From the IMG/VR virus record IMGVR_UViG_3300028591_000146, positions 1-64,000 of that record: a DNA stretch of 64,000 bases; one strand, 5' to 3'. Below are positions 7,347 to 26,608 of this stretch, piece by piece. The DNA comes from a virus (taxonomy: Duplodnaviria; Caudoviricetes). The notes under the pieces are model-generated. The model was not told the DNA's origin and searched no databases. It was given only the letters and a program-made list of their open reading frames with translations. Position numbers and translations under genes: made by a program. Position 1 is the stretch's first letter, and each line of letters starts with the position of its first letter.

Positions 7347-7351
7347 GAATA

Positions 7352-7375
7352 ATACCCGGGGATATCCCCGGGTAT
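7352..7375. terminator. GC-rich perfect palindrome (terminator-like), same core as 44413..44442
   Basis: ATACCCGGGGATATCCCCGGGTAT directly after the stop codon. Confidence 0.7.
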
Positions 7376-7429
7376 ATTCAATTCATTTTGAGTTACAATC
7401 TAGTAATATTTTTGTCTGGAGGTAATAAT

Positions 7430-7924: not shown

Positions 7925-7935
7925 TTCACAATTCT

Positions 7936-7956
7936 ATATTTATATGATTTAAATGT
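7936..7956 (+). promoter_or_regulatory. Early-type phage promoter (ATATWTATATNATT class)
   Basis: ATATTTATATGATTTAAATGT, identical at 26588 and near-identical at 29153; upstream of primase. Confidence 0.6.
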
Positions 7957-7981
7957 AATTCATATAAAGGAGGTTGTTTGT

Positions 7982-8926
7982 TTGAACATCATTGATTTCA
8001 AACGTATGTTATTGGACAATTGTTGTTTGCGACCTGGTGGTAAAGGAGTCTGGTGGCGAGCACAAACATGTCCATTCTGTGGACATAACAAATGGAAGTT
8101 TTATTTGTACATCGATATCAATAATGAATCTTCAGTTGGTTACGATTGTAAACGTTGTAATCGTAAAGGATTTGCAATTGATAAAACTATCCTCGAAGGA
8201 CTCGGTATCAGAGATGTTGAAGTTCCTAGGTTCAAAGGTGGAAACTTTATAAGGCAGAACTCAGAAGCATTCAATGATATCGTATTATTACCTGATGATG
8301 CAAACATATCAAAGATTCAGGATTATATCTACGAACGTATTGGAGTTGTACCAACATTCGATGAATTGAGAATGTTCCAGTATGTTGCAGATCCTGTTAA
8401 GTATTGTAGTATGATATCCAGTAAAGGATTCAATAAGAATGTATTCATCAATAGATTCTGTTTCAAATTATCAAATGGAGCACTTGCATGTAGGTATCAT
8501 AATGATACTAGACAGCGATGGTTAAAGTATTCAGTCACTAAAGATAATGGTCCTGGAATATATACCATCAAGAGCGAGTTCTCATATGATCAACCATTTG
8601 AGGTTTGTATATCAGAAGGAATCTTCGATGCAATAGGTTTGTATTATCATTTGAATAATCCTAATAATGTATACATTGCATGCGAAGGAACGAACTATGC
8701 TGCTGGTATCAACCACATGATATCGAAAGGATTATTCGGTAAACATGTTTCTATTGGAATCTATAAAGATGGAGATGTAAAGAATCATGAAATCCGATAT
8801 AATAAACGATATAAGAAATTATTCAAATCGATTACAATATATGAGAATGTAATAGCTCATGATTATGGACATCCAAAGAGTGAAGTGGAAATACATAAAT
8901 CATTAACGGAAGGAGTTTTAGAATGA
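7982..8926 (+). CDS. DNA primase (Zn-finger + TOPRIM)
   Basis: CPFC...CKRC zinc finger; TOPRIM motifs ISEGIFD and YKDGD; TTG start after AAGGAGG. Confidence 0.8.
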   Translation: MNIIDFKRMLLDNCCLRPGGKGVWWRAQTCPFCGHNKWKFYLYIDINNESSVGYDCKRCNRKGFAIDKTILEGLGIRDVEVPRFKGGNFIRQNSEAFNDIVLLPDDANISKIQDYIYERIGVVPTFDELRMFQYVADPVKYCSMISSKGFNKNVFINRFCFKLSNGALACRYHNDTRQRWLKYSVTKDNGPGIYTIKSEFSYDQPFEVCISEGIFDAIGLYYHLNNPNNVYIACEGTNYAAGINHMISKGLFGKHVSIGIYKDGDVKNHEIRYNKRYKKLFKSITIYENVIAHDYGHPKSEVEIHKSLTEGVLE

Positions 8927-9693
8927 AGATTACACAAATCAAACGTCATTACAATGATGGAAATAAAAAGTTATCTGGAATGATTGATGAAACTTTACAG
9001 TCTGGAAGCTATAACGAATCTTTGTATTATCAGTATACGATCATGGTTGACATTGAAGTTGAATCAAATAGTGATCATCTGTTACTGTTATACTACAAAG
9101 CATTCTGGGAAAGTATTGGTGATGGAAAAGAATTGTACTCTCGTGATGATAACTTCAAGAAGTTCAGTTTCATGATGTCACTGATGACTGCAATCGATTT
9201 CATATATGAAGCAACTCCGCCATTGCTTCAGAGTGAAATTAAATCATCAATAATATCAATCGATAATATCATTGAGGTTCTCAATACTTATCTGCTTGAG
9301 AATAACTCTGACAAGAAACTCCGTACATCAATATTCTTTAAGAAGAATGGATTATTTGAGTATGGTAGTATCTGGAATGATTCAAATGGTAAGACAGATT
9401 TCATTCGTTCCATTGTAGACAAGAATGCTTATCAACCAACGATTGCATATGTTGATATTGAGAAGGATGATTTCAGACAGTACATCATATCAGGACCGAT
9501 GAGCCAGATTGCTCGTATCCATATGATTGTCAAGAATCTGTATATCACACATGTATTCGTTAAGAAAGCTGAGTCATTAACAAAGAATGATATCATATAC
9601 ATTAAAGGATACTGTACATCATTCCGTGCTAGAAACTACGAATTCAAAACATTGGATACGTTATGTTTCAACACTTTAAAAATGCTGGAATAA
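8923..9693 (+). CDS. Hypothetical protein
   Basis: 256 aa, ATGA overlap with primase stop, SD AAGGAG. Confidence 0.75.
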   Translation: MKITQIKRHYNDGNKKLSGMIDETLQSGSYNESLYYQYTIMVDIEVESNSDHLLLLYYKAFWESIGDGKELYSRDDNFKKFSFMMSLMTAIDFIYEATPPLLQSEIKSSIISIDNIIEVLNTYLLENNSDKKLRTSIFFKKNGLFEYGSIWNDSNGKTDFIRSIVDKNAYQPTIAYVDIEKDDFRQYIISGPMSQIARIHMIVKNLYITHVFVKKAESLTKNDIIYIKGYCTSFRARNYEFKTLDTLCFNTLKMLE

Positions 9694-9716
9694 GGATGGG
9701 GCGTAAAGCCCCATCC
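9694..9716 (+). terminator. Stem-loop terminator
   Basis: GGATGGGGC-GTAAA-GCCCCATCC; same GGGGCGTAAAGCCCC core at 52761. Confidence 0.7.
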
Positions 9717-9843
9717 AATAATTTTATATTTCGATATATATTTAATTATATTGCAATGCCTGAAGATATTGCCAAAATGATGAATCGTACTCATTGCGCA
9801 AGAGTATGATATATCAAATTTATTATGAAAGGGAGTGATTGGA

Positions 9844-12087
9844 ATGACTTATGTTGGAGAAAATGATCGAGGCTCCAACGATAATAGTGGTATTATAACC
9901 ACGGTGATATCGTTAATAATTGCGGTTATAAATGTATCAGATAGAATAATTAAATATGTGAAAACTAAAAAAGATGAAGAATCAAAACGTTCTGAAAATC
10001 AACCTATCGAATTATATTATAACCCGAACACAAACAGTTATCAATACAAGGCATATGATAACAAATTAAAATATGTAAATGGAGGAAGTAAAATGAACAA
10101 CAATTTTGCGTATGACGTTTATGGCAGTCTGATGAATCCAGATATGCCAGTAAGCGACAACAGTCGTAGACATATGGCTAATAATTATGGATACGACCCA
10201 AATAAAAGAGACTATGTATGGACCAATATGACTCTCGGTCAGGTTCCATCAACATCCGAATATACACCATATGGTGGAAGAACAATGTTCGACCCAACAC
10301 CATTTCTCAGACAGACATCAAGTTATGTAAGAGATCCATATTATCCTTACAGCAATGAAGATATGTCAAATAACTGGAGCATGCCTAAGTTAAACACTGA
10401 GTTCGACAATGATCCTTATGCTGGTATCATTTATAGAAATTTCAAGAATCATTGGACTAGAAGAACTTATAATCCATATGAGCCTGCTAGACCGTTTGCA
10501 ACTTATGATCCTCATTCTATAAATGCAAATGATCCTAACCACAACCCTTTTGGTTGGTCTCAGGGAGTAATTGATGGAATGGTTAATCGTACAAATTATT
10601 ACAAAGATTACATTCTGAATATCAACCGTGAGAATCCATTTGGTGCTCCAAATGATATTGATAATCCTTTCAATACCATGGCTGGTCCTTCTTATATAGG
10701 TCCTGATGGTAGAATGTATACAAGACCGATGCCTGCAGAGCCTGAGGAACATGTCACACGTAATTTTCTCAGAAGAGATGTACCGTGGATGTCTAAAGGT
10801 CCTGAGTGGTTTGGCTGGAATCCTTATGGATTCGGACTTAGCGTATTTAATTCTGATGGAACTCCTAACTACTATAATACCAATAGTAATGGAGGTAGTT
10901 TTGTGAACGTTATGTCAAATACAAGAAGTCAGGTAATGCCTGGTGATACATTAGCACAGCCACTTGGTTCAGATCCATATGTAAGTAAATATTGGCAGGA
11001 TATTGAGAACGCTCGCACATCATATACTCGTCCGATGAGTAATATAAATCTCAATGAAGCAGTATTTAGCAAATGTCAGACAATACAGTCTGATCCAAAC
11101 AAAATGAATCCGAATATGTTTACAAATCCATATTCATCAGCTGTACAGAATCATATTGATCGTAGTCAGCTTGTTATTAATCCTCAGACTGGAATGGACA
11201 TAAATAATTTTAGTCCTAATCAGCCATTGGCTCATGATTCAAATCCGACAATCGATGCATTACTCAACATCACTCCTCAGCAAGCATCTGCTATTAGTCA
11301 GGGCGCTCCAATGCCGGGAACTCAGAACATGCCAATGTATCAGCAGTATCAGCCACAGATGACTCCAAATTATAATTATTCAAATTATAATTATCAGAAT
11401 AATTATCCAAACTATCAGAATAGCTATCCAAACTATAGTCAGCCGCAGTATAATTATGGATATTCTCAGAATCAGGATATAAATAATTATGGTGGTATGC
11501 AGCAGAGCTGTCTTGGTCCTAATGTATATGCTGGTATTCCAGGAAATGATATGGTGATGAGACAGAAGTTCAATGCATATAATGCTCAGGTTAATTATCA
11601 GGCTCCATATCAGTCAGCTTCTTATGGAAATGACTATGGTATGAATCAGGGTTATAATGATAGACGTCAGAGCATGTTTGTTGATAATTATAAGTATGAT
11701 TCACCTAATTACAGAAGTAGCACATACAATCCTAATTATGGTATGAATCCTCAGCCACAACAGCCACAGCCACAGCAGAATGGTGAGAATCCGAATTATG
11801 GAATGTATCAGCCGGTAAACAACAATGTATCAACTTCTGATATATATAACAATGCCACAACGACAGAATCATCATTCTCATTCTCTCATAGCAGTCCTGA
11901 AGTTCAGCGTGCAGCTATGGAAGCTGATATGAAGACAAAGGGTCTTAATGAAATGATGGCTCAGGCATTCTGTAGTGTAGCAGCTGGTGAAGAACCACCA
12001 CAGTTCACAATGCCTGAGAATCAGATGAGCCAGAATGAAACTAATAAGAGTGTATTTGGAATCAATTTTGGCAGCGATGAAGCATAA
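9844..12087 (+). CDS. Low-complexity N/Y/Q/P/M-rich (prion-like) protein with N-terminal hydrophobic helix; second SD-led in-frame start at 10093
   Basis: ORF 9835..12087; e.g. NYNYSNYNYQNNYPNYQNSYPNYSQPQYNYG; SD GGGAG before ATG 9844 and GGAGG before ATG 10093. Confidence 0.8.
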   Translation: MTYVGENDRGSNDNSGIITTVISLIIAVINVSDRIIKYVKTKKDEESKRSENQPIELYYNPNTNSYQYKAYDNKLKYVNGGSKMNNNFAYDVYGSLMNPDMPVSDNSRRHMANNYGYDPNKRDYVWTNMTLGQVPSTSEYTPYGGRTMFDPTPFLRQTSSYVRDPYYPYSNEDMSNNWSMPKLNTEFDNDPYAGIIYRNFKNHWTRRTYNPYEPARPFATYDPHSINANDPNHNPFGWSQGVIDGMVNRTNYYKDYILNINRENPFGAPNDIDNPFNTMAGPSYIGPDGRMYTRPMPAEPEEHVTRNFLRRDVPWMSKGPEWFGWNPYGFGLSVFNSDGTPNYYNTNSNGGSFVNVMSNTRSQVMPGDTLAQPLGSDPYVSKYWQDIENARTSYTRPMSNINLNEAVFSKCQTIQSDPNKMNPNMFTNPYSSAVQNHIDRSQLVINPQTGMDINNFSPNQPLAHDSNPTIDALLNITPQQASAISQGAPMPGTQNMPMYQQYQPQMTPNYNYSNYNYQNNYPNYQNSYPNYSQPQYNYGYSQNQDINNYGGMQQSCLGPNVYAGIPGNDMVMRQKFNAYNAQVNYQAPYQSASYGNDYGMNQGYNDRRQSMFVDNYKYDSPNYRSSTYNPNYGMNPQPQQPQPQQNGENPNYGMYQPVNNNVSTSDIYNNATTTESSFSFSHSSPEVQRAAMEADMKTKGLNEMMAQAFCSVAAGEEPPQFTMPENQMSQNETNKSVFGINFGSDEA

Positions 12088-12133
12088 TATATTAATTTAA
12101 TATATATTATAGAAATAAGAAGGAGGAGAACTT

Positions 12134-12592
12134 ATGTTCGAAAACACAAGAGCGTGGTCAACGGTTTGTGATTGTCTTGAAATCGCCAACAGAGCAATTC
12201 GTTCAATCGCATTACAGCAGCCGTTCTATCCACAGCAGGGCTACGGATATCCGGAAGTACCGCCACAGCATGCATCACGTCGTGATGCACAGTATGGTGC
12301 ACCTGTATATCCACAGCAGAATCAGTATACTGCGTATCCGAACCCGCAGTATCCACCACAGTTTCCTCAGGGTTATGCAACACCGTATATCCCAGGAAAG
12401 ACAAACCCCAATTATGGTATCAGTGGTGCTGCAGCGTATGCTCAGCCTCAGCAGGGACATGCTAACTATGACGCATACTTCCATCCCATGACATACCAGC
12501 AGCAGGCACCTCCTGATCCGAATATAACTTGCTCATTCGGATATGGTGCAGTACCAATCAAGAACAACAACGGAGGACAGTATGGCTATTGA
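12134..12592 (+). CDS. Low-complexity Q/P/Y/G-rich protein
   Basis: 152 aa, SD AGGAGGAG; YPQQ/YPNPQYPPQ repeats. Confidence 0.8.
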   Translation: MFENTRAWSTVCDCLEIANRAIRSIALQQPFYPQQGYGYPEVPPQHASRRDAQYGAPVYPQQNQYTAYPNPQYPPQFPQGYATPYIPGKTNPNYGISGAAAYAQPQQGHANYDAYFHPMTYQQQAPPDPNITCSFGYGAVPIKNNNGGQYGY

Positions 12593-12947
12593 GTTTAAAG
12601 AATACTGTGATAATTTCGCAGTGGTTGAGAATGTTACTATCACAGATGATAGAACTATTCCGGATGAATATAAGAAGACTGTTGAGAAGGTAATTGATGA
12701 TCTCAAGCTGAGAGTCGATGACTTTGATGAGGTATCAATCAATTATATCCAGCTCACTCTCGATGCAGTTAAGGATTTTGAGACAGCTCTCAGTCATACC
12801 AAGGGAAATATTCCTGATGGTATTATGAATGTTCTCGCTATTGAGTTATACGGTAAAGAGTTCAATGAGCTTGATGATGATAAGAAGTCGATAATAATAA
12901 CCGTATCGACATACATCTGTGTAGCAAGAAATAAGAAACTGCAATAA
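12582..12947 (+). CDS. Hypothetical acidic protein
   Basis: ORF 12543..12947; SD GGAGG favours ATG 12582. Confidence 0.75.
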   Translation: MAIEFKEYCDNFAVVENVTITDDRTIPDEYKKTVEKVIDDLKLRVDDFDEVSINYIQLTLDAVKDFETALSHTKGNIPDGIMNVLAIELYGKEFNELDDDKKSIIITVSTYICVARNKKLQ

Positions 12948-12954
12948 GCTTAAT

Positions 12955-13076
12955 GGGGAATGCATTTAAGTCGATAAATTTAATAAAGGAGGATATACTG
13001 GCAAGATGCATTCCCGACATTATCCGAACGACGACGGATACTATCGTCAGATAGATTGTCAGTAAAATGTACCATG
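12955..13076 (+). ncRNA. Structured cis-acting leader RNA, copy 1 (pseudoknot enclosing SD)
   Basis: P1 GGGAATGCATTT/AGATGCATTCCC; P2 TACTGGCAA/TTGTCAGTA; hairpins TATCCG/CGGATA and CTATC/GATAG; same topology as 31138..31264. Confidence 0.65.
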
Positions 13077-13712
13077 AATAAAGGTAACATTAAAATGGAT
13101 GAACTTAAGAAAGGCTGGGTAACAGCAGCCGAGGTTCATGCACATCTCGAGAGTGTTCTCAAGTGTCCAATCAAGAGTGACTTCAAGGTGATCACAGGAG
13201 CAAACCCTTTTGACGTTTATGTCAGAATGCGTATCGCAATCGAGGATAAGTATGCACTCGACACAACAGGTGCAAACAGCTATGTTGATCAGGTTCTGGC
13301 TGCTAACTGCAGTGAGCTTCCCCTGAGAGATTCTATCTATAAGAAGCTCCTGAAGTTCATGTATCCTCAGGATGTAAATGATCTTCGTCAGTTCATCCTC
13401 AATCAGAATCCACAGAAGCTTCTCAACAAGGGTATCTATGGTGCGAATCTTAAGGAACTTCTCGACAACGCAACACCTCACCACAGTGCAAAGTATTCAG
13501 AGATCGCTGTATATGTAATGCCTGAGGCAATCATCAGAGACATGGTTGTTGATCCCGCAGATGATGACGATGTTGACTTCTTCATCGATCTCGTTACAAA
13601 TGATCCTACAAACGGCGTACGCTGGAGAGCTTGCACAGTTAAGTATGTTGCTAAGACAATCATGACAACACATGATGATGCAACAATCCAGAAGATTTAC
13701 GAATCTCTTTAA
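13074..13712 (+). CDS. Hypothetical protein behind structured leader
   Basis: ORF 13056..13712; in-frame ATG at 13074 in conserved TACCATG context; codon usage resembles abundant structural genes. Confidence 0.75.
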   Translation: MNKGNIKMDELKKGWVTAAEVHAHLESVLKCPIKSDFKVITGANPFDVYVRMRIAIEDKYALDTTGANSYVDQVLAANCSELPLRDSIYKKLLKFMYPQDVNDLRQFILNQNPQKLLNKGIYGANLKELLDNATPHHSAKYSEIAVYVMPEAIIRDMVVDPADDDDVDFFIDLVTNDPTNGVRWRACTVKYVAKTIMTTHDDATIQKIYESL

Positions 13713-13726
13713 TTAAAATATGGAAG

Positions 13727-13750
13727 TGCACGGGATATATATCCCGTGTA
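13727..13750 (+). terminator. Stem-loop terminator
   Basis: TGCACGGGAT-ATAT-ATCCCGTGTA. Confidence 0.6.
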
Positions 13751-13773
13751 TCTTCTATTATGGAGGTGATAAA

Positions 13774-14862
13774 ATGATAGTTGAAATTAGTCAGATGATA
13801 ACTATGATAGAGGATTTCATAAGAGATCAGTCTCGTTATGTTATGGATGTTGGGGGTTGTGTTGGCACAGGTATTTTCAGAATATGTATTGAGACTGTAG
13901 CTCAGTTCTATGATTTCTCTAGAATACTCGTCATTGAAGGTTGCCAAGATTTCGTTGAGATGCAAAGACATCGTTTACCGAATCAGATTTTCTATGCTGA
14001 AAGCGTGACGAGTGAATTGGATGATACATTCTACAAACTGGATGATCCTAACACTCCTAAGTTTATGCGTAGTGATTTAACAGTCACAACAAATCCAAAC
14101 GACTTGAATATGTTTGATATCATCATCATTAATGATGCTCATCTTATACCGAGTGAAACTTTAAAGATGATTCGTAATAGATTCTATGCGAAGATAATCA
14201 ATATTGTAGATCCGTTTGATTATAAGAGTGAACAGTGGATGAGTGCTCCTACAGTAATTGATTCATTGAATAAATTATCTCTCATTCAAGCATATGCCAG
14301 AAGAGTATATAAGATTGAGACTCGTGCAATTGATAAGAATGTTTCATGTGGATTCAAGGATGTTGGTAATATATCAATACGAAGTGTTGGTAAACGTGAT
14401 AAACATCAGTATGTTACTCCATCGAAAGATATTATCGATTTAATCAATAAGCGTCGTAAACAAGACTTGAGACGTGGACAGAAGATAATCTGCACGAATA
14501 AATACATCGATGTATTGAAGGGTGAAGATGGTTTTGATCATGTATTCACAAATCATTCGATGGGAATCCTTCAATCTAATAGACAGCTTCTCAATAGTGG
14601 TAGTTATAATGTCAGACTTCATAACAGTATTCACAATGTCAATACTCAGTTGACATTTGATGCTGAACATGCTTATCACTTTGATACTACATGTATACCT
14701 GCTGATATTATATCTATTGATGAGATGAGACATCATAAGTTTAATTCGATTGTATTAGTATTACCCGACGACAAAGGTATAACCCTTCGCGAGATGTATA
14801 GTGTACTCAGATGCACAAACAATCTCACAGTGGGACATCTTAAAATGAAAGCGGGTAATTGA
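13774..14862 (+). CDS. Degenerate RecD/Dda-like (SF1B) helicase-fold protein, probably catalytically inactive
   Basis: Walker A-like GCVGTGIF (no Lys), Walker B-like IIIINDA, motif III-like IVDPFD, GQKIICTNK; SD GGAGGTG before ATG 13774. Confidence 0.5.
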   Translation: MIVEISQMITMIEDFIRDQSRYVMDVGGCVGTGIFRICIETVAQFYDFSRILVIEGCQDFVEMQRHRLPNQIFYAESVTSELDDTFYKLDDPNTPKFMRSDLTVTTNPNDLNMFDIIIINDAHLIPSETLKMIRNRFYAKIINIVDPFDYKSEQWMSAPTVIDSLNKLSLIQAYARRVYKIETRAIDKNVSCGFKDVGNISIRSVGKRDKHQYVTPSKDIIDLINKRRKQDLRRGQKIICTNKYIDVLKGEDGFDHVFTNHSMGILQSNRQLLNSGSYNVRLHNSIHNVNTQLTFDAEHAYHFDTTCIPADIISIDEMRHHKFNSIVLVLPDDKGITLREMYSVLRCTNNLTVGHLKMKAGN

Positions 14863-14863
14863 C

Positions 14864-15460
14864 ATGTTCTCTATAAAGAAATTAATGAATCGAAAAACTG
14901 ATGAAAAACAATGCATCTCATATAAGCATCTGGTATTCGACATTCGTAATTGTTCTGAAACCACATTAGCCTCATTCATTGAGCATACTGATGTTCAATC
15001 GATGAAAGCTGCTGATAAGTTAAGTGAATTGGTTGATCACATTGTTGCATCAATTGATTTATATGCTGAGAATAAATTTGCAGTTCCATCAACAATCCTC
15101 GGATTGAGAAATGGAGCTGTAAAGCTCAGTGATGGAACAAGAATGTTCATAGCTGCGTTGTTTGATAATCTCTCCAATCGTGAGTGTGAAATCAATGAAC
15201 TCATGCAGAGATTCATCAAAGCAACAGATCTTATCATGACAGCTAGAAAGATAATAATGCATTCAATAGAACTTGAATTCAGAATGGTTCAGTATGATGT
15301 CGATATCATCGAGCGTTACTATCAACAACAAAAGCATCCTAATAAAGACATAATATTCAATGTGTCATTTAAACAACCTTCACATATTCTAAAAACTCAA
15401 AAGGAGGACAAGCCTAATGGGTCAGTTAAACGAAACGGAACTCAGAGCAATGGGATATGA
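14864..15460 (+). CDS. Hypothetical protein
   Basis: 198 aa ORF in operon. Confidence 0.7.
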   Translation: MFSIKKLMNRKTDEKQCISYKHLVFDIRNCSETTLASFIEHTDVQSMKAADKLSELVDHIVASIDLYAENKFAVPSTILGLRNGAVKLSDGTRMFIAALFDNLSNRECEINELMQRFIKATDLIMTARKIIMHSIELEFRMVQYDVDIIERYYQQQKHPNKDIIFNVSFKQPSHILKTQKEDKPNGSVKRNGTQSNGI

Positions 15461-17219
15461 ACAGAAGTTCGATTACTCCCAATTCAGTCATGACAATGAC
15501 ATCAATGTTATCCCGAAGAAAGATTTCAAACGTCTCATTCGTGATACATTTAAAACAATCACAACTGTTGTCAAAGAAACATACGGACCGTATGGATCTA
15601 CATATACACTCAATGAGTTGAATCAGACTTCTTCAACAAAGGATGGATACAATTCATTTGAAGCTATTCACTTCTCCCATCAGTATAAGCAGATGGTTAA
15701 ACTCACAATCGGAAAGATATGTTCGCGTGTAAATGAAGTAGTAGGTGATGGCACAACATCATGCTTACTTCTTGCAGACAAGATATTCGATTCGATAGAT
15801 GAGACATTGAAGACCCCTGAGGATGAGAGACTTATCAATGACATTCTTACAGATGTACAGAAGTTCTTCAATGACAGTTTGGCTTTCGCAACTGATTATG
15901 ATTATATCAAACCTTTGAATCATGAATCTCTTGAGAGTGTATTGATGATGGCTTCCAATCATGACAAGAAACTCCGCGATACTCTTATCGATGCTCTTGA
16001 TGTAAAGTATGCTTCAGATGGATCAGTTACATCAATCAACAACATCAATGTTCAGACAAGAATCGATCAGAGTGTTTCAACAAAGTATGAGATACTCAAG
16101 ATGCCTGGTGACTATCGTGTCGAAGTTGGTATGTTCCCGAATGACATTGCTTTGTTACTCGAGAAACAGAACGTTGTGATTATTGCATATGATCATAACT
16201 TCAGTGAAGCTGATTTCACAAGCTTCATCACTACATATAAGGATAAGTATTGTCTGAATAATAAAGCTCATAAGATTCTGAATACGGATGGTACATTATC
16301 TGATGAGAGTGAAGCTAGCAATATTCCCCGTCCGATTATTCTTTTATGTGCAACGAATTTCAATCAGCGTGTAATCGATGATTACATGGTAACCTTCCTC
16401 AAGAGTGAAGCTATCTATAATCGTTCACATAACATCATACCTGTAACAGTCAAAGGTTCATACGCACGTAATGAGATACGTGATCTTGCTGCAGTTGCTG
16501 GAGTTCCATGTCACACTGTATATACACCAACAATCAAGTTTGAAGACTTTGATAAGTTCACTACTGTCACAGTATTCAACAATGATTGTCTCTGCATGTA
16601 TGATGTAAAACCTCCGGCTAATTATATTGAAGCTCTCAATATTGATATGCAGAATGAGGAAACTTCCAGTCGTCGTATACAGATGAAGAAGCGTATTGAT
16701 GCTTTGATGATGACTAAGTCAGACACTACTATCAATCTCACAGTTCCTAACAGTCTTGAACAGAAGATGCTTGAGGATAAGATTGATGACTGTGTTTCTA
16801 TCATCGAATCCGCATTCGAACATGGATGCGTTCCGAACTTATTCAAGTTCGCTCATACAATTCTGAAGATGTATAAGACAACAGACGACCGTACGGCAAC
16901 TGTTATTAATTCTATAATCAAATCTATTGAAGGAATCTTTACTGATGTTTGGATTTCCAAATATGGTGATGATGAGAATCTTATAACAGAACGCACAAAC
17001 AGAATGACATCATTCTATGAATCATATGACGTTTCATATGATATAATAAATGATGACTTCATACCACTCGAGAAACTCTCTACATCAGTACAATATGATG
17101 TCGAGGTTGTATGTGCAACTCTCGAAATCGTTAAATTCTTACTCACATCCAGAGGTCTTATATTTGATTCATGCTTACTGCAGATGCATGGAGATAATGG
17201 ACGTTATGTACCTACATGA
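15417..17219 (+). CDS. GroEL-like phage chaperonin
   Basis: TYGPYG, TKDG, VGDGTTS ATP-binding motif, KIDD; 600 aa. Confidence 0.85.
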   Translation: MGQLNETELRAMGYEQKFDYSQFSHDNDINVIPKKDFKRLIRDTFKTITTVVKETYGPYGSTYTLNELNQTSSTKDGYNSFEAIHFSHQYKQMVKLTIGKICSRVNEVVGDGTTSCLLLADKIFDSIDETLKTPEDERLINDILTDVQKFFNDSLAFATDYDYIKPLNHESLESVLMMASNHDKKLRDTLIDALDVKYASDGSVTSINNINVQTRIDQSVSTKYEILKMPGDYRVEVGMFPNDIALLLEKQNVVIIAYDHNFSEADFTSFITTYKDKYCLNNKAHKILNTDGTLSDESEASNIPRPIILLCATNFNQRVIDDYMVTFLKSEAIYNRSHNIIPVTVKGSYARNEIRDLAAVAGVPCHTVYTPTIKFEDFDKFTTVTVFNNDCLCMYDVKPPANYIEALNIDMQNEETSSRRIQMKKRIDALMMTKSDTTINLTVPNSLEQKMLEDKIDDCVSIIESAFEHGCVPNLFKFAHTILKMYKTTDDRTATVINSIIKSIEGIFTDVWISKYGDDENLITERTNRMTSFYESYDVSYDIINDDFIPLEKLSTSVQYDVEVVCATLEIVKFLLTSRGLIFDSCLLQMHGDNGRYVPT

Positions 17220-17228
17220 TATAGTTGT

Positions 17229-17254
17229 TCAACCCCGGGAATTCCCGGGGTTGA
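17229..17254. terminator. Palindromic stem-loop
   Basis: TCAACCCCGGG-AATT-CCCGGGGTTGA. Confidence 0.65.
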
Positions 17255-17315
17255 TTAATTAAAGTATCACATTAACAGTTCATTACATGAATCAAAAATG
17301 AAGGATGTGATTGGA

Positions 17316-19830
17316 ATGAAACAACTCAAACAATCGATATATAAAAATATATTATCGGTTATTACACAGCACCAGTTCAGGACTTCACAGAACATGATTC
17401 TGTTTTCAAGAATCCTGACTGCATATCCAACGAACAAAGGAAGTTACTACTTAACAACTCAACGTGTTATCTCGTATCTTGAACGTGGAGTCAGAGATAT
17501 ATCGTTGATGATTGAAACGATGAAAGTTGAGGGTGAAGATGAAGAGATATATAATACTCTTGCAGACATTGTAAGAAACCCAACCATTACTACAATTCCG
17601 GAAGTGGTTCATCTTACAAAGATATTATCTACATATCTGAAGTATGCAAACATTCTGAAAGTAAAGAACACATTCATCACATCGATGGATATGATTGATG
17701 ATGAGAATGAGGAGAATCTCTCTGAGTCAGTTGAAAGAGTTCACGAGTTTGCTAAGCAGATATGTGATGCATATGATGTAGCAAACGTATCAGTATCACA
17801 ACATCAATTTGATACTGGACAACCGGAATTAATGGAAAACGTTGTTGCTCATGCTCAGGATTCTACAAACATATCAAATGTTGTCGTTACTGGAGTCAGA
17901 GCACTCAACACATTACTTTCACCAGGTTATGTAAATGGAGCTTTGTATGTATATGCAGCTCTTCCAGCTAACTATAAATCTGGTATCCTACTTGAATCAC
18001 ATATCGATGTTCTTCGTTATAATGATCATCTGAAAGAATCGTTAAATGGAAAACGCCCAGTATCCATTTACATATCAATGGAGAACAACATGTCTCAGAC
18101 TATCAAACGTCTGTGGAGTATTCTTTATCCGAATACAGATATGAGATCATATACAGCTTCAGAAGCAACAAAGATGTTCAATACAGCTTTGAATTCACAT
18201 GGATTCCGTTCTGTAATATTGTATTATGGATATCGAGAGAAATCTACTAAAGATATCCGTGATATCATCAATACATTCAATACTGATAAAGAACAGGTTG
18301 TTGCAGTATTCTTTGATTATATAAAGCGAGTTCGTCCAGGTCGCACAGATGCTTCAACTCTCAGTAGTGAAAAGTCTGAGTTAAATGTTATCATGAACGA
18401 ATTCAAAAGTATTGCTGTTGAATTGGATATTCCATTCATAACAGCTCATCAGTTAAACCGTTCAGGAGCTCAAGCACTTGATGATGCATATCGTAATCGT
18501 GCTAATGGAAATGTACGTTCTGACATATTACTTGGTAGAAGTAATATTTCTGTTGCGTAAACAAAACTGCGCCACATACAAGTGATTGTATGTGCAAACC
18601 TATTTAACTGCTGGGATCACGTAACGTAATGTCGGGATGACATAACAGTGTATCAGCCACCAAATTAAATTTCGGAATTATATCAATATGAAAGGAGTGA
18701 TGATTATTAAAGATAATACTTCTGAGATTATTTATCAATATCTAAAGACTGTGAAATGGAAACCAGTTGTATATGCTGATATAAAACCCGGAATGTATGA
18801 GGTTTCTAATTATGGATTCATACGAAATATTCATAGTGGAAATATCATGTCAATATGCTTATCTGAAAAAGGATATGCGATGGTTGAATTGATGTCAGTC
18901 TCTGGTAGAGCAAAAACAAAGAAACTTCATCGAATAGTTGCAAAACATTTCGTTGATGGTGAAACTTCTGAAAAATGTGAAGTTGATCATCTTGATGGTA
19001 ATAAGATGAATAATAGAGCTTCTAATCTTGAATGGGTTACACATTTGGAAAACATTCGCAGAGCTTATAAACACAATCTCATACCTATCAAGAAATGTGA
19101 AGACCATCCACATTCAATATTAACCAATAAAGAAGTTCATGAAATATGTAAGACTCTTGTTAAATTTGATGGTGATTGTAAGAAAACTCTTGTTGAGTTA
19201 CGAGATCATATAAATTGTACACTAAGTCTTATTCATGGTATAAAATATAAGAATTGCTATAAGTCAATATCTGATTTATACTTTAATAAAAATTCATTTC
19301 CGAAATTTAAAAGGTTCAACGACTATCGAAACTAACTCAATCATACTAACACGTCGGGAGACGTCTTGATTGGAATAAGGATGTCATATCCGAAAGGAGT
19401 AGAGTAGCGCCAAAGCGATGTGTGGTTCTGGTTGAGAGTAATAATCTCATAATTCCAGATTAAAGCGAAATGGTAGGGTTCTTGTTAAAGAACGTGATAT
19501 AGTCTCACCGTCTGTTATAATGACAGAGAAGTTCATAAGAGAACTGCATGACGTAGCGAATCATGTGAAGATTTTGGGGAGATTCTTGAAGTTGCAGACT
19601 GGTTAGGAATCATAAATATTGATATGGTTGGTGATGAAAAATATCTTATGATAAAAGCTGCAAAGCAACGTGAGAAAGATCAAGCAGATCAATCAACATG
19701 TATTGCTTATAGACAACCATTCCTCACACCAACATCATTTGCGTTGAGAACTGATATAACTGAAAATGTTCCTCTGGGTCAGCCGTTATATACAGAACTT
19801 CAGCAACTCAATTACGCTAGAGCTCAATAA
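17316..19830 (+). CDS. DnaB-like replicative helicase, spliced: join(17316..18558,19577..19830), 498 aa
   Basis: Walker A-like ALPANYKS, YISMEN, VFFDYI, ITAHQLNR; splicing gives SNISVA-W-EILEVAD (DnaB S..IEQDAD motif) in frame. Confidence 0.85.
18559..19576 (+). mobile_element. Group I intron in DnaB-like gene
   Basis: P1 exon GCGU with IGS GCGC (U.G at splice site); core elements AACTGCTGGGA, TTCAACGACTA, GATATAGTC; terminal G 19576; removal restores frame. Confidence 0.85.
18688..19335 (+). CDS. Intron-encoded HNH homing endonuclease (NUMOD4-HNH type)
   Basis: YEVSNYG, LHRIVAKHF, VDHLDGNKMNNRASNLEW; ORF reads into intron core (FNDYR). Confidence 0.9.
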   Translation: MKGVMIIKDNTSEIIYQYLKTVKWKPVVYADIKPGMYEVSNYGFIRNIHSGNIMSICLSEKGYAMVELMSVSGRAKTKKLHRIVAKHFVDGETSEKCEVDHLDGNKMNNRASNLEWVTHLENIRRAYKHNLIPIKKCEDHPHSILTNKEVHEICKTLVKFDGDCKKTLVELRDHINCTLSLIHGIKYKNCYKSISDLYFNKNSFPKFKRFNDYRN

Positions 19831-19836
19831 TCCAAT

Positions 19837-19858
19837 CAAGCTTGGTAGGGCAAGCTTG
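19837..19858. terminator. Stem-loop after helicase
   Basis: CAAGCTTG-GTAGGG-CAAGCTTG. Confidence 0.4.
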
Positions 19859-19874
19859 TAAAAATATATAAACG

Positions 19875-19894
19875 ATATTTATATTGTTAAAATG
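19875..19894 (+). promoter_or_regulatory. Early-type promoter
   Basis: ATATTTATATTGTTAAAATG. Confidence 0.5.
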
Positions 19895-19944
19895 GATAAC
19901 AGAAGGATACTGTTATCTGAAATCAGAAATAGGAGGAAAATACA

Positions 19945-20562
19945 ATGATTAGATCTTTACAGACCAAGATCTGGTATGCGGATGATATCATCCCATACGA
20001 TCAGCTGATTACCACTTCATATCCGGTTCAGGTAATTCAGGGAGATCAGCTGATAGGTTTGAAAATCAGTCTCGCTGACCATGTCAGAATGCCAGCGGCA
20101 GAAAGAATCGTACGTCTCGAACAGATTCTTCCTAACATTCTTGCAGGTACAAGATGCATGTTAAGAGAGACACCAATCACAGCCCCATTCGGCTATTATC
20201 TGTTAACCATGCCGGTTCCTAAGGATCAGCTCCGTGGAATAATAAACGAGGTTATCAGAGTTTTGACAATACTTGAACGTGACTTCGGAATTACAGTCAC
20301 AAAAGAGTATGAGATCAATGTATCGGGACAGTGTTCACCGATGGAGACTGAGTACAAACTTGCAAGATTCGATGTTCCATCAGAATATATCGGAATGCTT
20401 GTACACCAGCCTGGATCTCCGTATTCAATCGGATATGTTGAACGTATCAATGAAGGATATATCACAGTGAGAACGCTTTGGTCATATCCTGTTAATACTA
20501 ACATAATCTCAGATCTCGAGCATATCAAGATGCTTGCATACTTGATTGCTGGAATATTTTAA
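19945..20562 (+). CDS. Hypothetical protein
   Basis: 205 aa, SD AGGAGG. Confidence 0.8.
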   Translation: MIRSLQTKIWYADDIIPYDQLITTSYPVQVIQGDQLIGLKISLADHVRMPAAERIVRLEQILPNILAGTRCMLRETPITAPFGYYLLTMPVPKDQLRGIINEVIRVLTILERDFGITVTKEYEINVSGQCSPMETEYKLARFDVPSEYIGMLVHQPGSPYSIGYVERINEGYITVRTLWSYPVNTNIISDLEHIKMLAYLIAGIF

Positions 20563-20576
20563 AGGAGGATTTTAAA

Positions 20577-21272
20577 ATGAGTAACGAATTTCCAAATCCT
20601 GATGCTCCTGAATTAGGTAAACAGCAGTTTATCAAATATCAGTATCAGGAAACACCAATGGCAACACAGGGATACTACTATGGTGGTGGAGCTGTAGATC
20701 CATTCGCACAGATGCAGTATCAGCAGTATCAGCCTCAGGCTGTAGAGAGTAGAAGATTCATGGGTCCTGACATATCACAGATGCAGCAGAGTCAGCAGCA
20801 GTTCTTCCCTCAGCAGCCTGTTAACACACAGATACTCAACAGATTTATCGAACAGGATAGACAGGTTCCTCAGTATCAGCAGCCTGCAGTTCCTATGAAT
20901 CAGCAGTATCCACAGCCATCTCCGGTAAGTCCTTGGGCACAGCTTACAGCTCCTGTCGGTCCTATGAACAACAACAATGCTTTCATGCAGCCATTCTATG
21001 ATGAAGCATATCTCTCAAGACCATATGGAAATTATGCAGATGCATCTCAGGGTCTGATTGTTCCACCTATCAACAAGAAGGAAATGTGGGATCCAGCATA
21101 TGCAACTCCTGTTGTATATGATAGCCCTCAGATTAACTGGAGCAATCCTAACCCACAGCAGGCTTACTGTTATACAACACCACAACCTCAGCAGTATGTA
21201 TCACCTTTCAAAGGTGCTTCACAGGAACAGCCTGGTTCATGGTATGCTCGTGCACAGGAGAACTGGAAGTAA
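20577..21272 (+). CDS. Low-complexity Q/P/Y-rich (prion-like) protein
   Basis: 231 aa, SD AAGGAGG; QMQYQQYQPQ, QQSQQQFFPQQP. Confidence 0.8.
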   Translation: MSNEFPNPDAPELGKQQFIKYQYQETPMATQGYYYGGGAVDPFAQMQYQQYQPQAVESRRFMGPDISQMQQSQQQFFPQQPVNTQILNRFIEQDRQVPQYQQPAVPMNQQYPQPSPVSPWAQLTAPVGPMNNNNAFMQPFYDEAYLSRPYGNYADASQGLIVPPINKKEMWDPAYATPVVYDSPQINWSNPNPQQAYCYTTPQPQQYVSPFKGASQEQPGSWYARAQENWK

Positions 21273-21281
21273 TGATTGATG

Positions 21282-21305
21282 TATGCGGGGATATATCCCC
21301 GCATA
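21282..21305. terminator. Palindromic stem-loop
   Basis: TATGCGGGG-ATATAT-CCCCGCATA. Confidence 0.6.
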
Positions 21306-21333
21306 TCATTTTATGTTAAGGAGACATGTATTC

Positions 21334-22116
21334 ATGCTTTATACATATAGATCAAGACTGAACCAACTACCACTTGATTTGAAGTGTGAATTAGGTGAAC
21401 TTGTATATCAAAAAGGAATGCTACCAGAATCTAGAAAGAGTAAAGCTGTTGAATTATTCACAAAGTATAAAGTAGAGTTCATAGAAGTAGGAACTGGTAC
21501 TAATCGGTTCATTGTTAAATATGACGATTATGCTTTGAAGATTGCTCTTGATAATGATGGTGTGGCAGACAATAAACAAGAATATGCAATGTGTGATATT
21601 CTCAAACATGGAATGTCATATTCACACGAGATATCTAAAGGTGGAAATCTATTAACAGCTGAGTATTGCCCAGCGATGACTTCATATCAGGAATTATATA
21701 ATCATCGAGATGAGATAAAAGCGATTCTTGCAGATTGGAGTTCTAGATGTATCCTTGGTGACGTAGGTATCAGTCGAATAAATTATGCGAATTGGGGATT
21801 ACGTAATGGAGTGGAGCCCGTGTGTATAGATTATGCGTACGTATTTCCATCAACTACGAAGATATTCAAATGTATTTGCGGTGCATCCGATATTGCTCAT
21901 ACAGATGAAACCTATACAGTGTATAAATGTTTGTCTTGTGGAAGAATAATCGAAGATTCAACACTCAGACAGAGAATAACTCCAGAAGCAAGAATGAGAA
22001 TGCTTGCGAACGCAACTCTCGGTTCTATCGAGATGACAGAAAAGACTAAGACTGTTGAGATTCCTGATATGTATATCAAGAAACCAGTTCTTAGTGATGA
22101 CCCAGACTTTGTTTAA
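21334..22116 (+). CDS. Protein-kinase-like protein with C-terminal Zn ribbon
   Basis: Gly loop GTGTNR, ALKIA (Lys), helix C Glu in NKQE, catalytic D...N in GDVGISRINYANWG, IDY; CIC...CLSC; SD AAGGAG before ATG 21334. Confidence 0.7.
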   Translation: MLYTYRSRLNQLPLDLKCELGELVYQKGMLPESRKSKAVELFTKYKVEFIEVGTGTNRFIVKYDDYALKIALDNDGVADNKQEYAMCDILKHGMSYSHEISKGGNLLTAEYCPAMTSYQELYNHRDEIKAILADWSSRCILGDVGISRINYANWGLRNGVEPVCIDYAYVFPSTTKIFKCICGASDIAHTDETYTVYKCLSCGRIIEDSTLRQRITPEARMRMLANATLGSIEMTEKTKTVEIPDMYIKKPVLSDDPDFV

Positions 22117-22136
22117 TATTTAAGGAGGTACTTGTT

Positions 22137-22565
22137 ATGTACTATAAGAAGATCATTCGTCGTTGTGCTCCAGAAACAAATGAAGCACCTGTAACACCCC
22201 AGCCACAGGTAGTTACCGTTGAACCAACATATTCATTGACTGAAGAACAGGGTAAGAGATTACTCAACTTCTTTGAGTATCTAAAGACGGAATGCTTCAC
22301 TGATATTCCTTATAATAAGGATATTGATATACATTTCCTGAGAATGATTCCTAAGGGAGTATATAATCATTTCGAAAGTGTCGAAGCTAAGAATGGTCCG
22401 TTAACTGCAAATCCGATCACACTTCTGTATGGATTCTGTCTGAATGATATCAACATGTATCCGAACTTCCTTGAGAGATATCTTGAGATAAATCTGGAAG
22501 AACATGCAGATTTCACAGACTGGATTACAAACAATATCTCGTATGTTGAAAAGGATGATGAATAA
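22137..22565 (+). CDS. Hypothetical protein
   Basis: 142 aa, SD AAGGAGG. Confidence 0.8.
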   Translation: MYYKKIIRRCAPETNEAPVTPQPQVVTVEPTYSLTEEQGKRLLNFFEYLKTECFTDIPYNKDIDIHFLRMIPKGVYNHFESVEAKNGPLTANPITLLYGFCLNDINMYPNFLERYLEINLEEHADFTDWITNNISYVEKDDE

Positions 22566-26587: not shown

Positions 26588-26608
26588 ATATTTATATGAT
26601 TTAAATGT
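26588..26608 (+). promoter_or_regulatory. Early-type promoter
   Basis: ATATTTATATGATTTAAATGT identical to 7936..7956. Confidence 0.6.

Follow-up and report, generated by a model that had tools for sequence, protein, structure and literature searches.

The linker of ZipA, which tethers FtsZ to the membrane in E. coli, is rich in proline and glutamine. As outlined in one account, ZipA has its transmembrane region at the N-terminus and its binding domain at the C-terminus, with an unstructured domain between them (PMC6016244). The phi29 membrane proteins p1 and p16.7 are described as anchoring the replication machinery at the membrane (PMC4974454), and ChmC (PhiPA3 gp61, phiKZ gp67) is reported to have a Whirly RNA-binding domain and a conserved Asn-rich disordered C-terminal region that drives the formation of RNA condensates in vitro (PMC11077065). 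PLAAC flagged 5040 of 370,617 phage proteins as prion-like, and the catalogued domains, as presented in that survey, are mostly parts of attachment, penetration or release proteins (PMC5694896).

The DNA analysed here, a window of 64,000 nucleotides at positions 1 to 64,000 of a 94-kb record that is ~35% complete, is from an uncultured, ~260-kb jumbo phage of ruminant guts that encodes tubulin and a multisubunit RNA polymerase (RNAP). The only hint of a host comes from co-binning: the MAG concerned is titled Spirochaetaceae. Three ORFs resemble the phage prion-like (Q/N-rich) domains in composition, but here whole proteins are biased, the genes lie in a replication-gene region and a linear motif is common to two of them. 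The order of parts in ORF1 matches that of ZipA as outlined above, and this layout is found alongside an FtsZ/tubulin-family gene in the phage genome. However, ORF1 has no sequence or Pfam relationship to ZipA, exceeds twice its length and includes an additional conserved P/N/Y/D-rich region of 390 residues. Like p16.7 and p1 as described, it is phage-encoded and a predicted membrane protein, and it adjoins primase- and helicase-type genes, but it is not homologous to either. Both phi29 proteins, unlike ORF1, are small and not of low complexity, and they have folded or coiled-coil parts. In contrast to ChmC as reported, ORF1–3 have no recognised domain, and phiKZ gp67 has no match in the record. 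Our best explanation, a tentative one with a probability of about 0.35, is that, during infection, ORF1 is a disordered scaffold tethered to the membrane, with ORF2 and ORF3 as its motif-bearing partners.

Three low-complexity genes under purifying selection

ORF1 (9844..12087, + strand; 747 aa, largely disordered, with a predicted membrane anchor), ORF2 (12134..12592, +; 152 aa, P/Q/Y/G-rich, disordered) and ORF3 (20577..21272, +; 231 aa, Q/P/Y-rich, fully disordered) are all present where the initial annotation had placed them, and their positions are kept in six related contigs (ORF3 in all five loci extending that far). The ATG of ORF1 at 9844 agrees with the MTY start of its homologues. 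Values of dN/dS were 0.05–0.32 in 9 of 9 comparisons (GroEL, for reference, 0.08–0.13), and a 15-nt in-frame insertion behind 11751 in ORF1 was seen in a DNA run. The synteny, low dN/dS and in-frame indels establish ORF1–3 as real genes under purifying selection. RNA-library contigs cover parts of the genes, with DNA carry-over a possible source.

The proteins had been described as dominated by Q, N, Y, P, G and M with little charge, and the counts bear this out. These residues make up 0.489 of ORF1, 0.553 of ORF2 and 0.541 of ORF3, compared with a mean of 0.269 (s.d. 0.067) for the 77 ORFs of ≥100 aa in the 94-kb record, among which the three take ranks 1–3. D+E+K+R amount to 0.09–0.16 (ORF mean 0.25) and I+L+V to 0.09–0.11 (ORF mean 0.22). 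The prion-like, disordered nature is likewise supported by prediction: AlphaFold2 gave no confident fold for ORF1 or ORF3, the two modelled (mean pLDDT 35 and 48.5), with almost no secondary structure in ORF3, and the confidence of the ESM Atlas model was also low (0.33). The aromatic residues, thought to be regularly spaced, have the gap variation of shuffled sequences (fraction at or below the observed value 0.79, 0.41 and 0.06 for ORF1, ORF2 and ORF3). An N-terminal helix common to ORF1 and ORF2 was not recovered (local alignment z=0.3; hhalign 0.4%), nor was a single family, since profile comparisons among the three all gave <1% probability in hhalign. Judged by sequence, they are three unrelated, clade-restricted families of uncharged Q/N/P/Y(M)-rich proteins.

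Gene neighbourhood and flanking hairpins

The neighbours of the three genes are replication genes (primase-like, GroEL, DnaB and SbcC), and a PhuZ-like tubulin gene lies 9–20 kb from them. The recognisable virion genes of the record are not beside them but at 35050–38991 and 52796–53977. In phiKZ-like phages the gene neighbourhood is a poor pointer to function, which counts against the scaffold. Conserved hairpins bracket an operon in which ORF1 and ORF2 are followed by genes for a 121-aa and a 218-aa protein. The first hairpin, just 5′ of ORF1 (9694..9716, +), is G+C-rich, perfect and terminator-like, with nine pairs, seven of them GC, and a T-rich tail, and has a counterpart in 5 of 7 loci; the closing one (13729..13748, +), also terminator-like, occurs in all six loci that extend to the site. 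In each of the six related loci, the ORF1 homologue is immediately followed by an ORF2 orthologue. The 121-aa gene (12582..12947, +) begins with its ATG inside the last 11 nt of ORF2, and on these coordinates the two are apparently translationally coupled. Its product is acidic (net charge −5 to −10), is present in 6 of 6 loci (alignment A5) and has no family or PDB match; it is a candidate partner of ORF2. The 218-aa gene (13056..13712, +; 212 aa from the ATG at 13074) is the last of the unit. ORF3 follows a conserved 205-aa gene (19945..20562, +; dN/dS 0.02–0.04) after a gap of 14 nt, and a terminator-like hairpin immediately 3′ of ORF3 (21282..21305, +) is present in 6 of 6 loci.

A hydrophobic N-terminal helix followed by a long flexible chain recalls membrane-inserting ejection or tape-measure-type proteins. 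ORF1–3 might accordingly be virion-borne, loaded into the head or tail and then ejected into the cell, with the ORF1 helix inserting into the host membrane at DNA delivery, although we think this unlikely. Unfolded chains would fit threading through a tail, and ORF1 lies behind its own hairpin and an AT-rich upstream region without the ATATTTATAT[GC]ATT motif that precedes several replication and RNAP genes. The published survey, which reported phage prion-like domains chiefly in proteins for attachment, penetration and release (PMC5694896), points the same way. Set against this are the position of ORF1–3 among replication genes and away from recognisable virion genes, the lack of a match between any of them and a virion PHROG, and the coupling of ORF2 to a small acidic protein.

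Predicted architecture of ORF1

Residues 18–36 of ORF1 (9895..9951, +) form a hydrophobic N-terminal helix that is predicted from hydropathy to be a signal anchor (N-out, C-in). The Kyte–Doolittle maximum over 19 residues is 1.85 in this helix and 1.85–2.56 in 15 of 16 homologues, K+R number 0–3 before it and 4–7 within the 20 residues after it, and the AlphaFold2 helix spans residues 15–49. ORF1 is thus probably a bitopic membrane protein with a short outward N-terminus and ~700 cytoplasmic residues, a topology called solely from hydropathy and the positive-inside rule, and one that fits the membrane-tethered option of the initial annotation. The sixteenth lineage instead has the anchor as its own low-complexity protein (333 aa), located upstream, which suggests that the parts are modular and associate. 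The cytoplasmic part would comprise a length-constrained P/N/Y/D-rich region, then a flexible N/Q-rich spacer bearing Tyr/Phe-Gly ‘stickers’, and lastly a small module for docking at the C-terminus.

The P/N/Y/D-rich core (residues 86–478; 10099..11277, +) is conserved, with a near-constant length of 364–393 aa in 16 sequences, 46% identity to eight distant homologues and the majority of the 58 columns that are invariant in the ORF1 alignment (A1). It matches just five cluster representatives among 1.84 billion, and [ND]P[YFW] occurs in it nine times against 1.7 expected. By its near-fixed length and its identity to distant homologues, the core goes beyond mere low complexity. The constraint suggests that the core has an ordered structure which AlphaFold2, given 16 sequences, failed to detect, and the core could have an activity other than scaffolding; this counts against the scaffold. 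Its length, invariant columns and distant identity, and its lack of internal repeats, would also suit an ordered domain of new fold (an enzyme, a binding module or a self-assembling lattice) for which the low-complexity parts are mere linkers and the ‘prion-like’ aspect is incidental. However, neither AlphaFold2 nor ESM gives a fold, I+L+V is only ~11%, and such a core is lacking from ORF2 and ORF3; we regard this account as quite unlikely.

The spacer (residues 479–672; 11278..11859, +), in which the insertion noted above falls, is a variable N/Q/Y(M)/P/G low-complexity region of 103–214 aa among homologues (33% gaps). Its composition is retained despite the change in length, with Met in place of Tyr in distant members; [YF]G dipeptides are enriched in every one of the 16 homologues (p≤0.028), and Y632 and G633 are invariant. 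In GLFG/FG-type nucleoporins, uncharged spacers rich in N and Q carry recurrent aromatic-Gly dipeptides, and the ORF1 spacer is like them, although the resemblance is compositional only. The conserved C-terminal module (residues 673–747; 11860..12087, +; 13% gaps) is predicted to be helical at 685–713 and 730–738 and ends in a hydrophobic [LIV]F[GDN][ILV] tail.

The spacer has 31 Q/N per 80 aa; ORF2 and ORF3, with 19 and 27, fall below 30, which counts against the scaffold. The Q/N and [YF]G content of the spacer and the low charge of ORF1–3 would fit a true condensate, that is, a tubulin-positioned replication/transcription compartment replacing or lining a chimallin shell. Such a phase might be YG/N/Q-rich and selective, like that of FG-nucleoporins. 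ChmC, with its Asn-rich condensate-forming tail, is a precedent in chimalliviruses. The search for chimallin proposed in the initial annotation, with HMMs PF25677 and phrog_4795, gave no match, which would agree with this reading. It covered the 94-kb record and a MAG that contains no fewer than three contigs from a relative; neither is complete, so that absence of chimallin cannot be concluded. With the record at ~35% and the phage very distant from phiKZ (just 4 of 22 tested phiKZ proteins give any match in the record), a divergent chimallin could be missed. The irregular aromatic patterning, a point against the scaffold too, also speaks against a condensate, which we judge improbable.

The [ST]RR motif and a possible membrane-tethered scaffold

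ORF2 (dN/dS 0.05–0.21) has a conserved N-terminal helix-like segment, an invariant SRR and a GGxYGY C-terminus, and ORF3 has several conserved short islands; both are probably soluble disordered proteins built from such islands. An isolated SRR had been recognised in ORF1, ORF2 and ORF3, and there is exactly one in each; the ORF set (28,411 residues) has five in total. Of the tripeptides common to ORF1–3, SRR is the least probable, a level reached in 7 of 3000 composition-preserving shuffles. Its sharing by ORF2 and ORF3 alone is modestly improbable (112 of 3000 shuffles) and takes its weight from conservation in orthologues. In ORF2 (S48 R49 R50; 12275..12283, +), where the chance of SRR from composition is 0.0045, it is invariant in 8 of 8 family members. 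In ORF3 (S58 R59 R60; 20748..20756, +) it lies within [ST]RRF[ML](G)PD, and [ST]RR is found in 8 of 9 aligned members; L006 has ASRRNMP a few residues upstream, and a further copy, LNAFxESRR[QN][VI]xP, is seen in distant members. The ORF1 copy (S107 R108 R109; 10162..10170, +; chance from composition 0.09) is not conserved, the site being IRRYM in close and NRNL in distant homologues. Conservation therefore holds for ORF2 and ORF3, and the non-conservation in orthologues that the initial annotation had named as evidence against its own proposal was found for ORF1 only. One island common to the ORF2 and ORF3 families is an extended motif, [ST]RR-x-hydrophobic-(x)-Pro, with 15 matches in 65,079 residues of the derived ORF sets of seven loci (+ strand ORFs only for L008), 15 of 15 in ORF2 or ORF3 proteins. 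The ORF2 of this genome and its L002 orthologue lack the Pro; this, and the non-conservation of SRR in ORF1 orthologues, count against the scaffold.

Short conserved motifs of this kind resemble mimicry of host docking sites, and the alternation of S and T at the first position fits a modified residue. ORF1–3 might on these grounds seize or guard the host envelope, ORF1 acting from the membrane on host machinery, for instance that of division, secretion or superinfection exclusion, and ORF2 and ORF3 offering their [ST]RR to a host protein as decoys or inhibitors. The predicted anchor of ORF1 and the confinement of all three families to one clade would agree with such a role. A Tat signal peptide was considered, but the sequence, while resembling the Tat consensus, fails the signal-peptide test, and a role at the host envelope seems rather improbable to us.

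The earlier observation is thus partly confirmed and its interpretation partly supported. In favour of the scaffold are the conservation of the genes, the predicted disorder and compositional bias, the predicted anchor, the [YF]G dipeptides and the behaviour of the spacer, the [ST]RR motif, the operon, and the replication genes and tubulin gene nearby, with p1 and p16.7, ZipA and ChmC as precedents. For the membrane-tethered scaffold, we propose that ORF1 would anchor a multivalent, cohesive protein layer at the cytoplasmic face of the membrane, to which ORF2 and ORF3 may be recruited through composition-driven contacts. Their [ST]RR would dock on one common folded partner, for which the acidic 121-aa protein and the acidic ORF1 core are candidates. 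Whether or not such a hub is a liquid condensate, its outcome would be that phage machinery is concentrated or positioned near the membrane in the replication phase.

Composition, kinship and conservation of ORF1, ORF2 and ORF3

ORF1 (9844-12087, + strand, 747 residues), ORF2 (12134-12592, + strand, 152 residues) and ORF3 (20577-21272, + strand, 231 residues) are all present as the initial annotation described them. Their dominance by Q, N, Y, P, G and M was borne out, with fractions of 0.489, 0.553 and 0.541, respectively, that are the three highest among the 77 non-overlapping ORFs of at least 100 residues in the whole record (mean 0.269, s.d. 0.067), as was their low charge (0.09–0.16 versus 0.25 in the record's ORFs). 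The combined content of I, L and V is also low (0.09–0.11 versus 0.22 in the record's ORFs). Aromatic residues are plentiful (13–16%), yet they are no more evenly placed than in shuffled sequences, and the regular spacing ascribed to them was not found. The threshold for a Q/N-rich prion-like domain is 30 Q/N per 80 residues; the best windows contain 31 in ORF1, 27 in ORF3 and 19 in ORF2. That the three proteins form a true condensate compartment we consider improbable.

The three proteins had also been taken for one homologous family. Among the three family alignments hhalign probabilities are 0.4%, 0.1% and 0.1%, and shuffle-controlled local alignments among ORF1–3 give z≤2.2. The N-terminal helix pattern said to unite ORF1 and ORF2 is within chance (z=0.3 by local alignment; hhalign 0.4%). 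ORF1–3 have composition and one short motif in common, without detectable shared ancestry.

A search of 5.8 billion proteins returned 15 homologues of ORF1 besides itself, on contigs of up to 255 kb and with BLAST identities of 36–53% in all but one, together with four homologues of ORF3 and two of ORF2 beyond their own clusters. None of the three proteins has a match in Pfam or PHROGs, and no relatives were found when IMG/VR was scanned with ORF1, ORF3 and the ORF1-family alignment. The gene order of the window is kept in all six related loci (L002–L006 and L008), which come from one metagenome scan and one genome scan. It runs from two paralogous proteins of 1100–1250 residues through a 152-residue gene, a primase-like gene and a 254-residue gene (listed in four of the six loci) to ORF1 and ORF2 homologues, genes of 121, 216/218, 360–380 and 198 residues, GroEL, DnaB, a 205-residue gene, an ORF3 homologue and a 277-residue gene. 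Locus L002 stops short of ORF3, and ORF2 of L005 is masked by a spurious minus-strand ORF. Among three close relatives, dN/dS is 0.07–0.21 for ORF1, 0.05–0.21 for ORF2 and 0.15–0.32 for ORF3, against 0.08–0.13 for GroEL and 0.02–0.04 for DnaB. The length changes within ORF1 seen in DNA runs are all in-frame (3 nt at 10096 and 15 nt behind 11751). ORF1–3 are conserved, selected and compositionally extreme proteins.

The viral record is 94,039 bases long with a completeness of 35% (CheckV), and the window is its first 64 kb. A protein identical to ORF1 is recorded on a contig of 261,215 bases. The window encodes a tubulin/FtsZ-family protein (29987-31042; PF00091, 4e-9; PHROG 'tubulin PhuZ', 1.6e-10), split multisubunit RNA polymerase beta-type subunits (44514-46772 and 58846-60411) and a GroEL-type chaperonin (15417-17219), as well as a DnaB-like helicase, a primase-like protein, an SbcC-like protein, a large terminase and a tail-tube protein. 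Most genes are preceded by strong AGGAGG ribosome-binding sites. phiKZ is very distant, with any match to the record for four of the 22 phiKZ proteins tried, and the 50,697 GenBank phage records gave no match to the region, ORF1, the tubulin or P0016 (the ORF1 homologue of locus L006) by megablast and tblastn with the low-complexity filter on. Seventeen runs of sheep, cattle and goat gut contain near-identical DNA with at least half of the sampled words; the rows with such DNA number 20, belong to 13 studies and may include the source sample as one of them. Contigs of a relative (L008; G001 C22 and C53) that carry the ORF1 locus, terminase (75% identity) and tubulin (65%) are binned in a MAG titled uncultured Spirochaetaceae, a weak hint at the host.

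Architecture of ORF1

The alignment of 16 ORF1-family sequences and region statistics divide ORF1 into four parts. In the first (residues 1–85), a hydrophobic helix precedes a K/R-rich stretch and a conserved hairpin. In 15 of the 16 sequences the 19-residue hydropathy maximum of the helix is 1.85–2.56, with 0–3 K/R before it and 4–7 within 20 residues after it. Since the K/R cluster follows the helix, the positive-inside rule predicts that ORF1 has a signal anchor and that most of the protein is cytoplasmic. The sixteenth sequence, P0016, lacks the helix. Directly upstream of it in L006, the most distant of the relatives, lies a gene for a 333-residue protein; it has a like helix (2.17), its body is Q/P/Y-rich and its end is rich in GYGY. 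The L006 equivalent of ORF1 (L006 8944-11902) therefore comprises separate polypeptides, a 333-residue anchor/low-complexity gene and a 641-residue core/spacer/tail gene, with 31 nt between them. The split is stable, as the 641-residue form represents a cluster of 79 members.

The second part (residues 86–478) is a P/N/Y/D-rich core that contains the majority of the 58 invariant columns and is 46% identical to eight distant homologues. [ND]P[YFW] occurs nine times in the core versus 1.7 expected, and no internal repeats were detected (z≤2.4). A core profile run against 1.84 billion representatives matched five cluster representatives, all of this clade. The length of the core is fixed (364–393 residues), which argues that it is ordered in some context, and the AlphaFold2 fold negative, which derives from 16 sequences, is not decisive. 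The reading that the core is an ordered novel fold and the low-complexity linkers are incidental seems to us distinctly unlikely.

The third part (residues 479–672) is a spacer of 103–214 residues with 33% gaps in the alignment, N/Q/Y/P-rich in the window and N/M/Q-rich with 5–8% aromatics in distant members. [YF]G dipeptides are enriched in the spacers of all 16 sequences (p≤0.028) and one YG is invariant (Y632, G633). From its sequence character, the spacer may act like the linker of a sticker-and-spacer protein. The fourth part (residues 673–747) is a less biased module that is predicted to be helical and has a hydrophobic tail at its end.

AlphaFold2, supplied with the family alignment, gave ORF1 a mean pLDDT of 35.2 and a pTM of 0.19. 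The ESM Atlas model has a pLDDT of 0.33, with no usable feature match in the Atlas and structure matches only at TM≤0.29, and no PDB sequence matched the alignment profile. ORF1–3 might instead be ejected or virion proteins, which we consider unlikely.

The [ST]RR motif and the gene units

As first noted, each of the three proteins contains exactly one isolated SRR, at residue 107 in ORF1, 48 in ORF2 and 58 in ORF3, with Q/P/Y-rich flanks in ORF2 and ORF3. The record's ORF set (28,411 residues) contains five SRR, three of them within ORF1–3. Eleven tripeptides are common to the three proteins, and none is as improbable on composition as SRR. This improbability was reached in 7 of 3000 composition-preserving shuffles of ORF1–3 and in 112 of 3000 for ORF2 and ORF3 alone. 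Conservation of the motif in orthologues held for ORF2 (8 of 8 sequences) and, as [ST]RR, for ORF3 (8 of 9) but failed for ORF1, where SRR is confined to the window's protein (1 of 16) and the site reads IRRYM in close homologues and NRNL in distant ones. Hence [ST]RR is a real short linear motif common to ORF2 and ORF3, while the SRR of ORF1, being found in one member of its family, is probably coincidental or lineage-specific.

The eight ORF2 sequences have a conserved N-terminal segment, the invariant S48-R49-R50, a PxIPGxxDPxYG island and a GGxYGY end. The nine ORF3 sequences have 32 invariant columns distributed over about seven short islands. AlphaFold2 gave ORF3 a pLDDT of 48.5 with scarcely any secondary structure, and the ESM Atlas yielded one lead at 0.77 without a family. 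To judge from these islands, ORF2 and ORF3 may be chains of short docking motifs. In ORF3 the motif has the form [ST]RRF[ML](G)PD in eight of nine aligned members, with Thr in the four closest relatives; the L006 protein has ASRRNMP slightly upstream of the aligned site, and a second copy, LNAFxESRR[QN][VI]xP, is present in the distant members from L003, L004, L006 and L008. Across seven ORF sets totalling 65,079 residues (the window and the six loci, with + strand ORFs for L008), the extended pattern [ST]RR-x-[LIVMFA]-(x)-P has 15 hits, every one in an ORF2- or ORF3-family protein. Its proline is missing from the window's ORF2 and the L002 orthologue.

In Tat signal peptides a hydrophobic h-region comes after an [ST]RRxFLK-like motif that lies close to the N-terminus. 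The motif of ORF2 and ORF3 resembles this consensus, but the hydrophobic stretch after it is absent and a Tat signal was therefore rejected. The best 19-residue hydropathy is 0.73 in ORF2 (residue 9, ahead of the motif) and −0.06 in ORF3.

G+C-rich perfect hairpins lie just before ORF1 (9694-9716; in five of seven loci), just after the 218-residue gene (13729-13748; in six of six) and just after ORF3 (21282-21305; in six of six), and no hairpins beside genes are listed between these three points. Delimited in this way, ORF1, ORF2 and the 121- and 218-residue genes (12582-12947 and 13056-13712) look like one unit, and ORF3 looks to terminate another. According to the coordinates, the ATG of the 121-residue gene overlaps the ORF2 stop by 11 nt in the window, L002, L003, L005 and L006. 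This overlap suggests translational coupling of the two genes and places the acidic 121-residue protein (net charge −5 to −10) first among candidate partners for ORF2. The operon partners and ORF3's neighbour have no significant match in the PDB (best E-value 0.14), and Rfam has no match in 7000-23000.

ATATTTATAT[GC]ATT is over-represented in the window (20 versus 8.5 expected at ≤2 mismatches), for example at 7936-7949, 26588-26601, 29153-29166, 44451-44464 and 60411-60424. As exact copies precede the primase-like, SbcC-like, 29227, RNAP-beta and 60482 genes, it is likely to represent a phage promoter class; no copy lies upstream of ORF1. A TATG-before-RBS pattern is too rare for use as a promoter class. 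A leader starting TTAATAAAGGAGGATATACTG is common to the 13074 and 31262 genes (about 12950-13073 and 31138-31264). Contigs from the RNA-library run X19 are 100% identical to 12407-13856, 20256-20764 and 20931-21362, and X19 has depth in two ORF1 bins; these data are contigs that may include DNA carry-over and are uninformative on expression level, and they give only a hint of expression.

The DnaB-like helicase gene is interrupted: an HNH/NUMOD4 endonuclease ORF (18688-19335) separates its N-terminal part (17298-18560) from a short C-terminal ORF (19624-19830). The HNH ORF is absent from L004, L005 and L008 and a remnant in L003, the helicase is a single 497-residue ORF in L006, and two runs contain a form without 18680-19301 that has 12 other letters there. 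The interruption has the look of an inserted mobile endonuclease, perhaps inside an intron; the helicase region has no Rfam intron match. The 277-residue gene after ORF3 (21283-22116) encodes highly conserved GTGTNRF, AxK and IDYAY motifs and a Cys4 zinc-ribbon-like end. Its start is probably M18 (MLYTYRSRL), as in its homologues, since the hairpin after ORF3 overlaps the first ATG. By eye, and from the motifs only, it recalls a kinase-like fold, an idea that drew no support from a PDB profile search or a Pfam scan. The adjacent paralogues at 76-3792 and 3990-7346 (1238 and 1118 residues, 29–32% mutual identity) have no Pfam or PHROG match; the pair is present at 51–57% identity in five of six relatives, while in L006 the second paralogue is 47% identical and the first is covered at its end only. 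A fourth low-complexity protein (46986-47429, 147 residues) is fourth in Q/N/Y/P/G/M content and reaches 27 Q/N per 80 residues. Its N-terminus is hydrophobic, RRRRK and a coiled-coil-like middle come next, and the tail is (VQQPQ)n; it may be another anchored, Q/P-tailed protein.

A proposed membrane-tethered hub

Neither ORF1 nor ORF3 receives a confident fold from AlphaFold2, and a conserved motif is common to ORF2 and ORF3. We propose, with a probability of roughly one in three, that the proteins build a membrane-tethered multivalent hub. ORF1 would sit in the membrane by its anchor, with most of the chain cytoplasmic, and the [ST]RR motifs of ORF2 and ORF3 would dock onto one common partner.

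By analogy, the proposed hub may be likened to ZipA, to p1 and p16.7 of phi29 and to the tail of ChmC. ZipA joins a binding module to its anchor through an unstructured domain (PMC6016244). ORF1 shares the N-terminal anchor and cytoplasmic bulk of such a tether, as a prediction only, but has no Pfam match that would correspond to the C-terminal FtsZ/tubulin-binding domain. The phi29 proteins are outlined as membrane anchors for replication (PMC4974454) and ChmC as having an Asn-rich condensate-forming tail (PMC11077065). The Whirly-fold nucleic-acid-binding domain of ChmC is not recognised in ORF1–3 (no Pfam or PHROG match), and AlphaFold2 shows no folded domain in ORF1 or ORF3. phiKZ gp67 has no match in the record.

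The chimallin models PF25677 and phrog_4795, which match the phiKZ gp54 control at E=0 and 1e-230, have no match among the 50 window proteins scanned (ORF1–3 and 47 others), in six frames of the 94-kb record, which is only 35% complete, or in the relative's 3.6-Mb MAG, which is incomplete for the phage. The phrog_4795 search of nucleotide targets was silent everywhere, its controls included. As both targets are incomplete and the phrog controls silent, a chimallin may have escaped detection.

In a further reading, the replication zone of this clade of tubulin-encoding jumbo phages, in which no chimallin was detected, would be organised by a lipid-anchored cohesive phase and not by a protein shell alone. 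ORF1 would fasten an N/Q-rich, Tyr/Met-Gly 'sticker' meshwork to the membrane; ORF2 and ORF3 would enter this meshwork and use [ST]RR-x-hydrophobic-Pro to bring in clients. We regard this as highly improbable; if true, it would provide a bacterial-virus analogue of an FG-nucleoporin-like selective phase.

A PLAAC catalogue reports prion-like domains in 5040 of 370,617 phage proteins, chiefly of host interaction (PMC5694896). A takeover of the host envelope by ORF1–3 is a reading to which we give little credence. At the level of titles and abstracts, the literature on prion-like, low-complexity and disordered proteins of jumbo phages and on rumen PhuZ phages does not describe ORF1–3. Low-complexity or disordered phage proteins are of a known kind; new here are a bias across whole proteins, a predicted membrane anchor on one of them and a private linear motif in two.

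Jumbo phages with a PhuZ-like tubulin are models of viral compartment building inside bacteria, an account that has so far centred on the shell protein chimallin, with ChmC among its few partners. This uncultured ruminant-gut clade retains three predicted-disordered proteins under purifying selection. If these are ejected or virion proteins, they would be an example of unfolded chains used for DNA delivery. Should they instead build a tethered scaffold or condensate, this would be a second, sequence-simple route to organising phage replication and a tractable bacterial system of sticker-and-spacer proteins with defined docking motifs. Either way, the [ST]RR motif and the ORF1 anchor provide concrete experimental handles.
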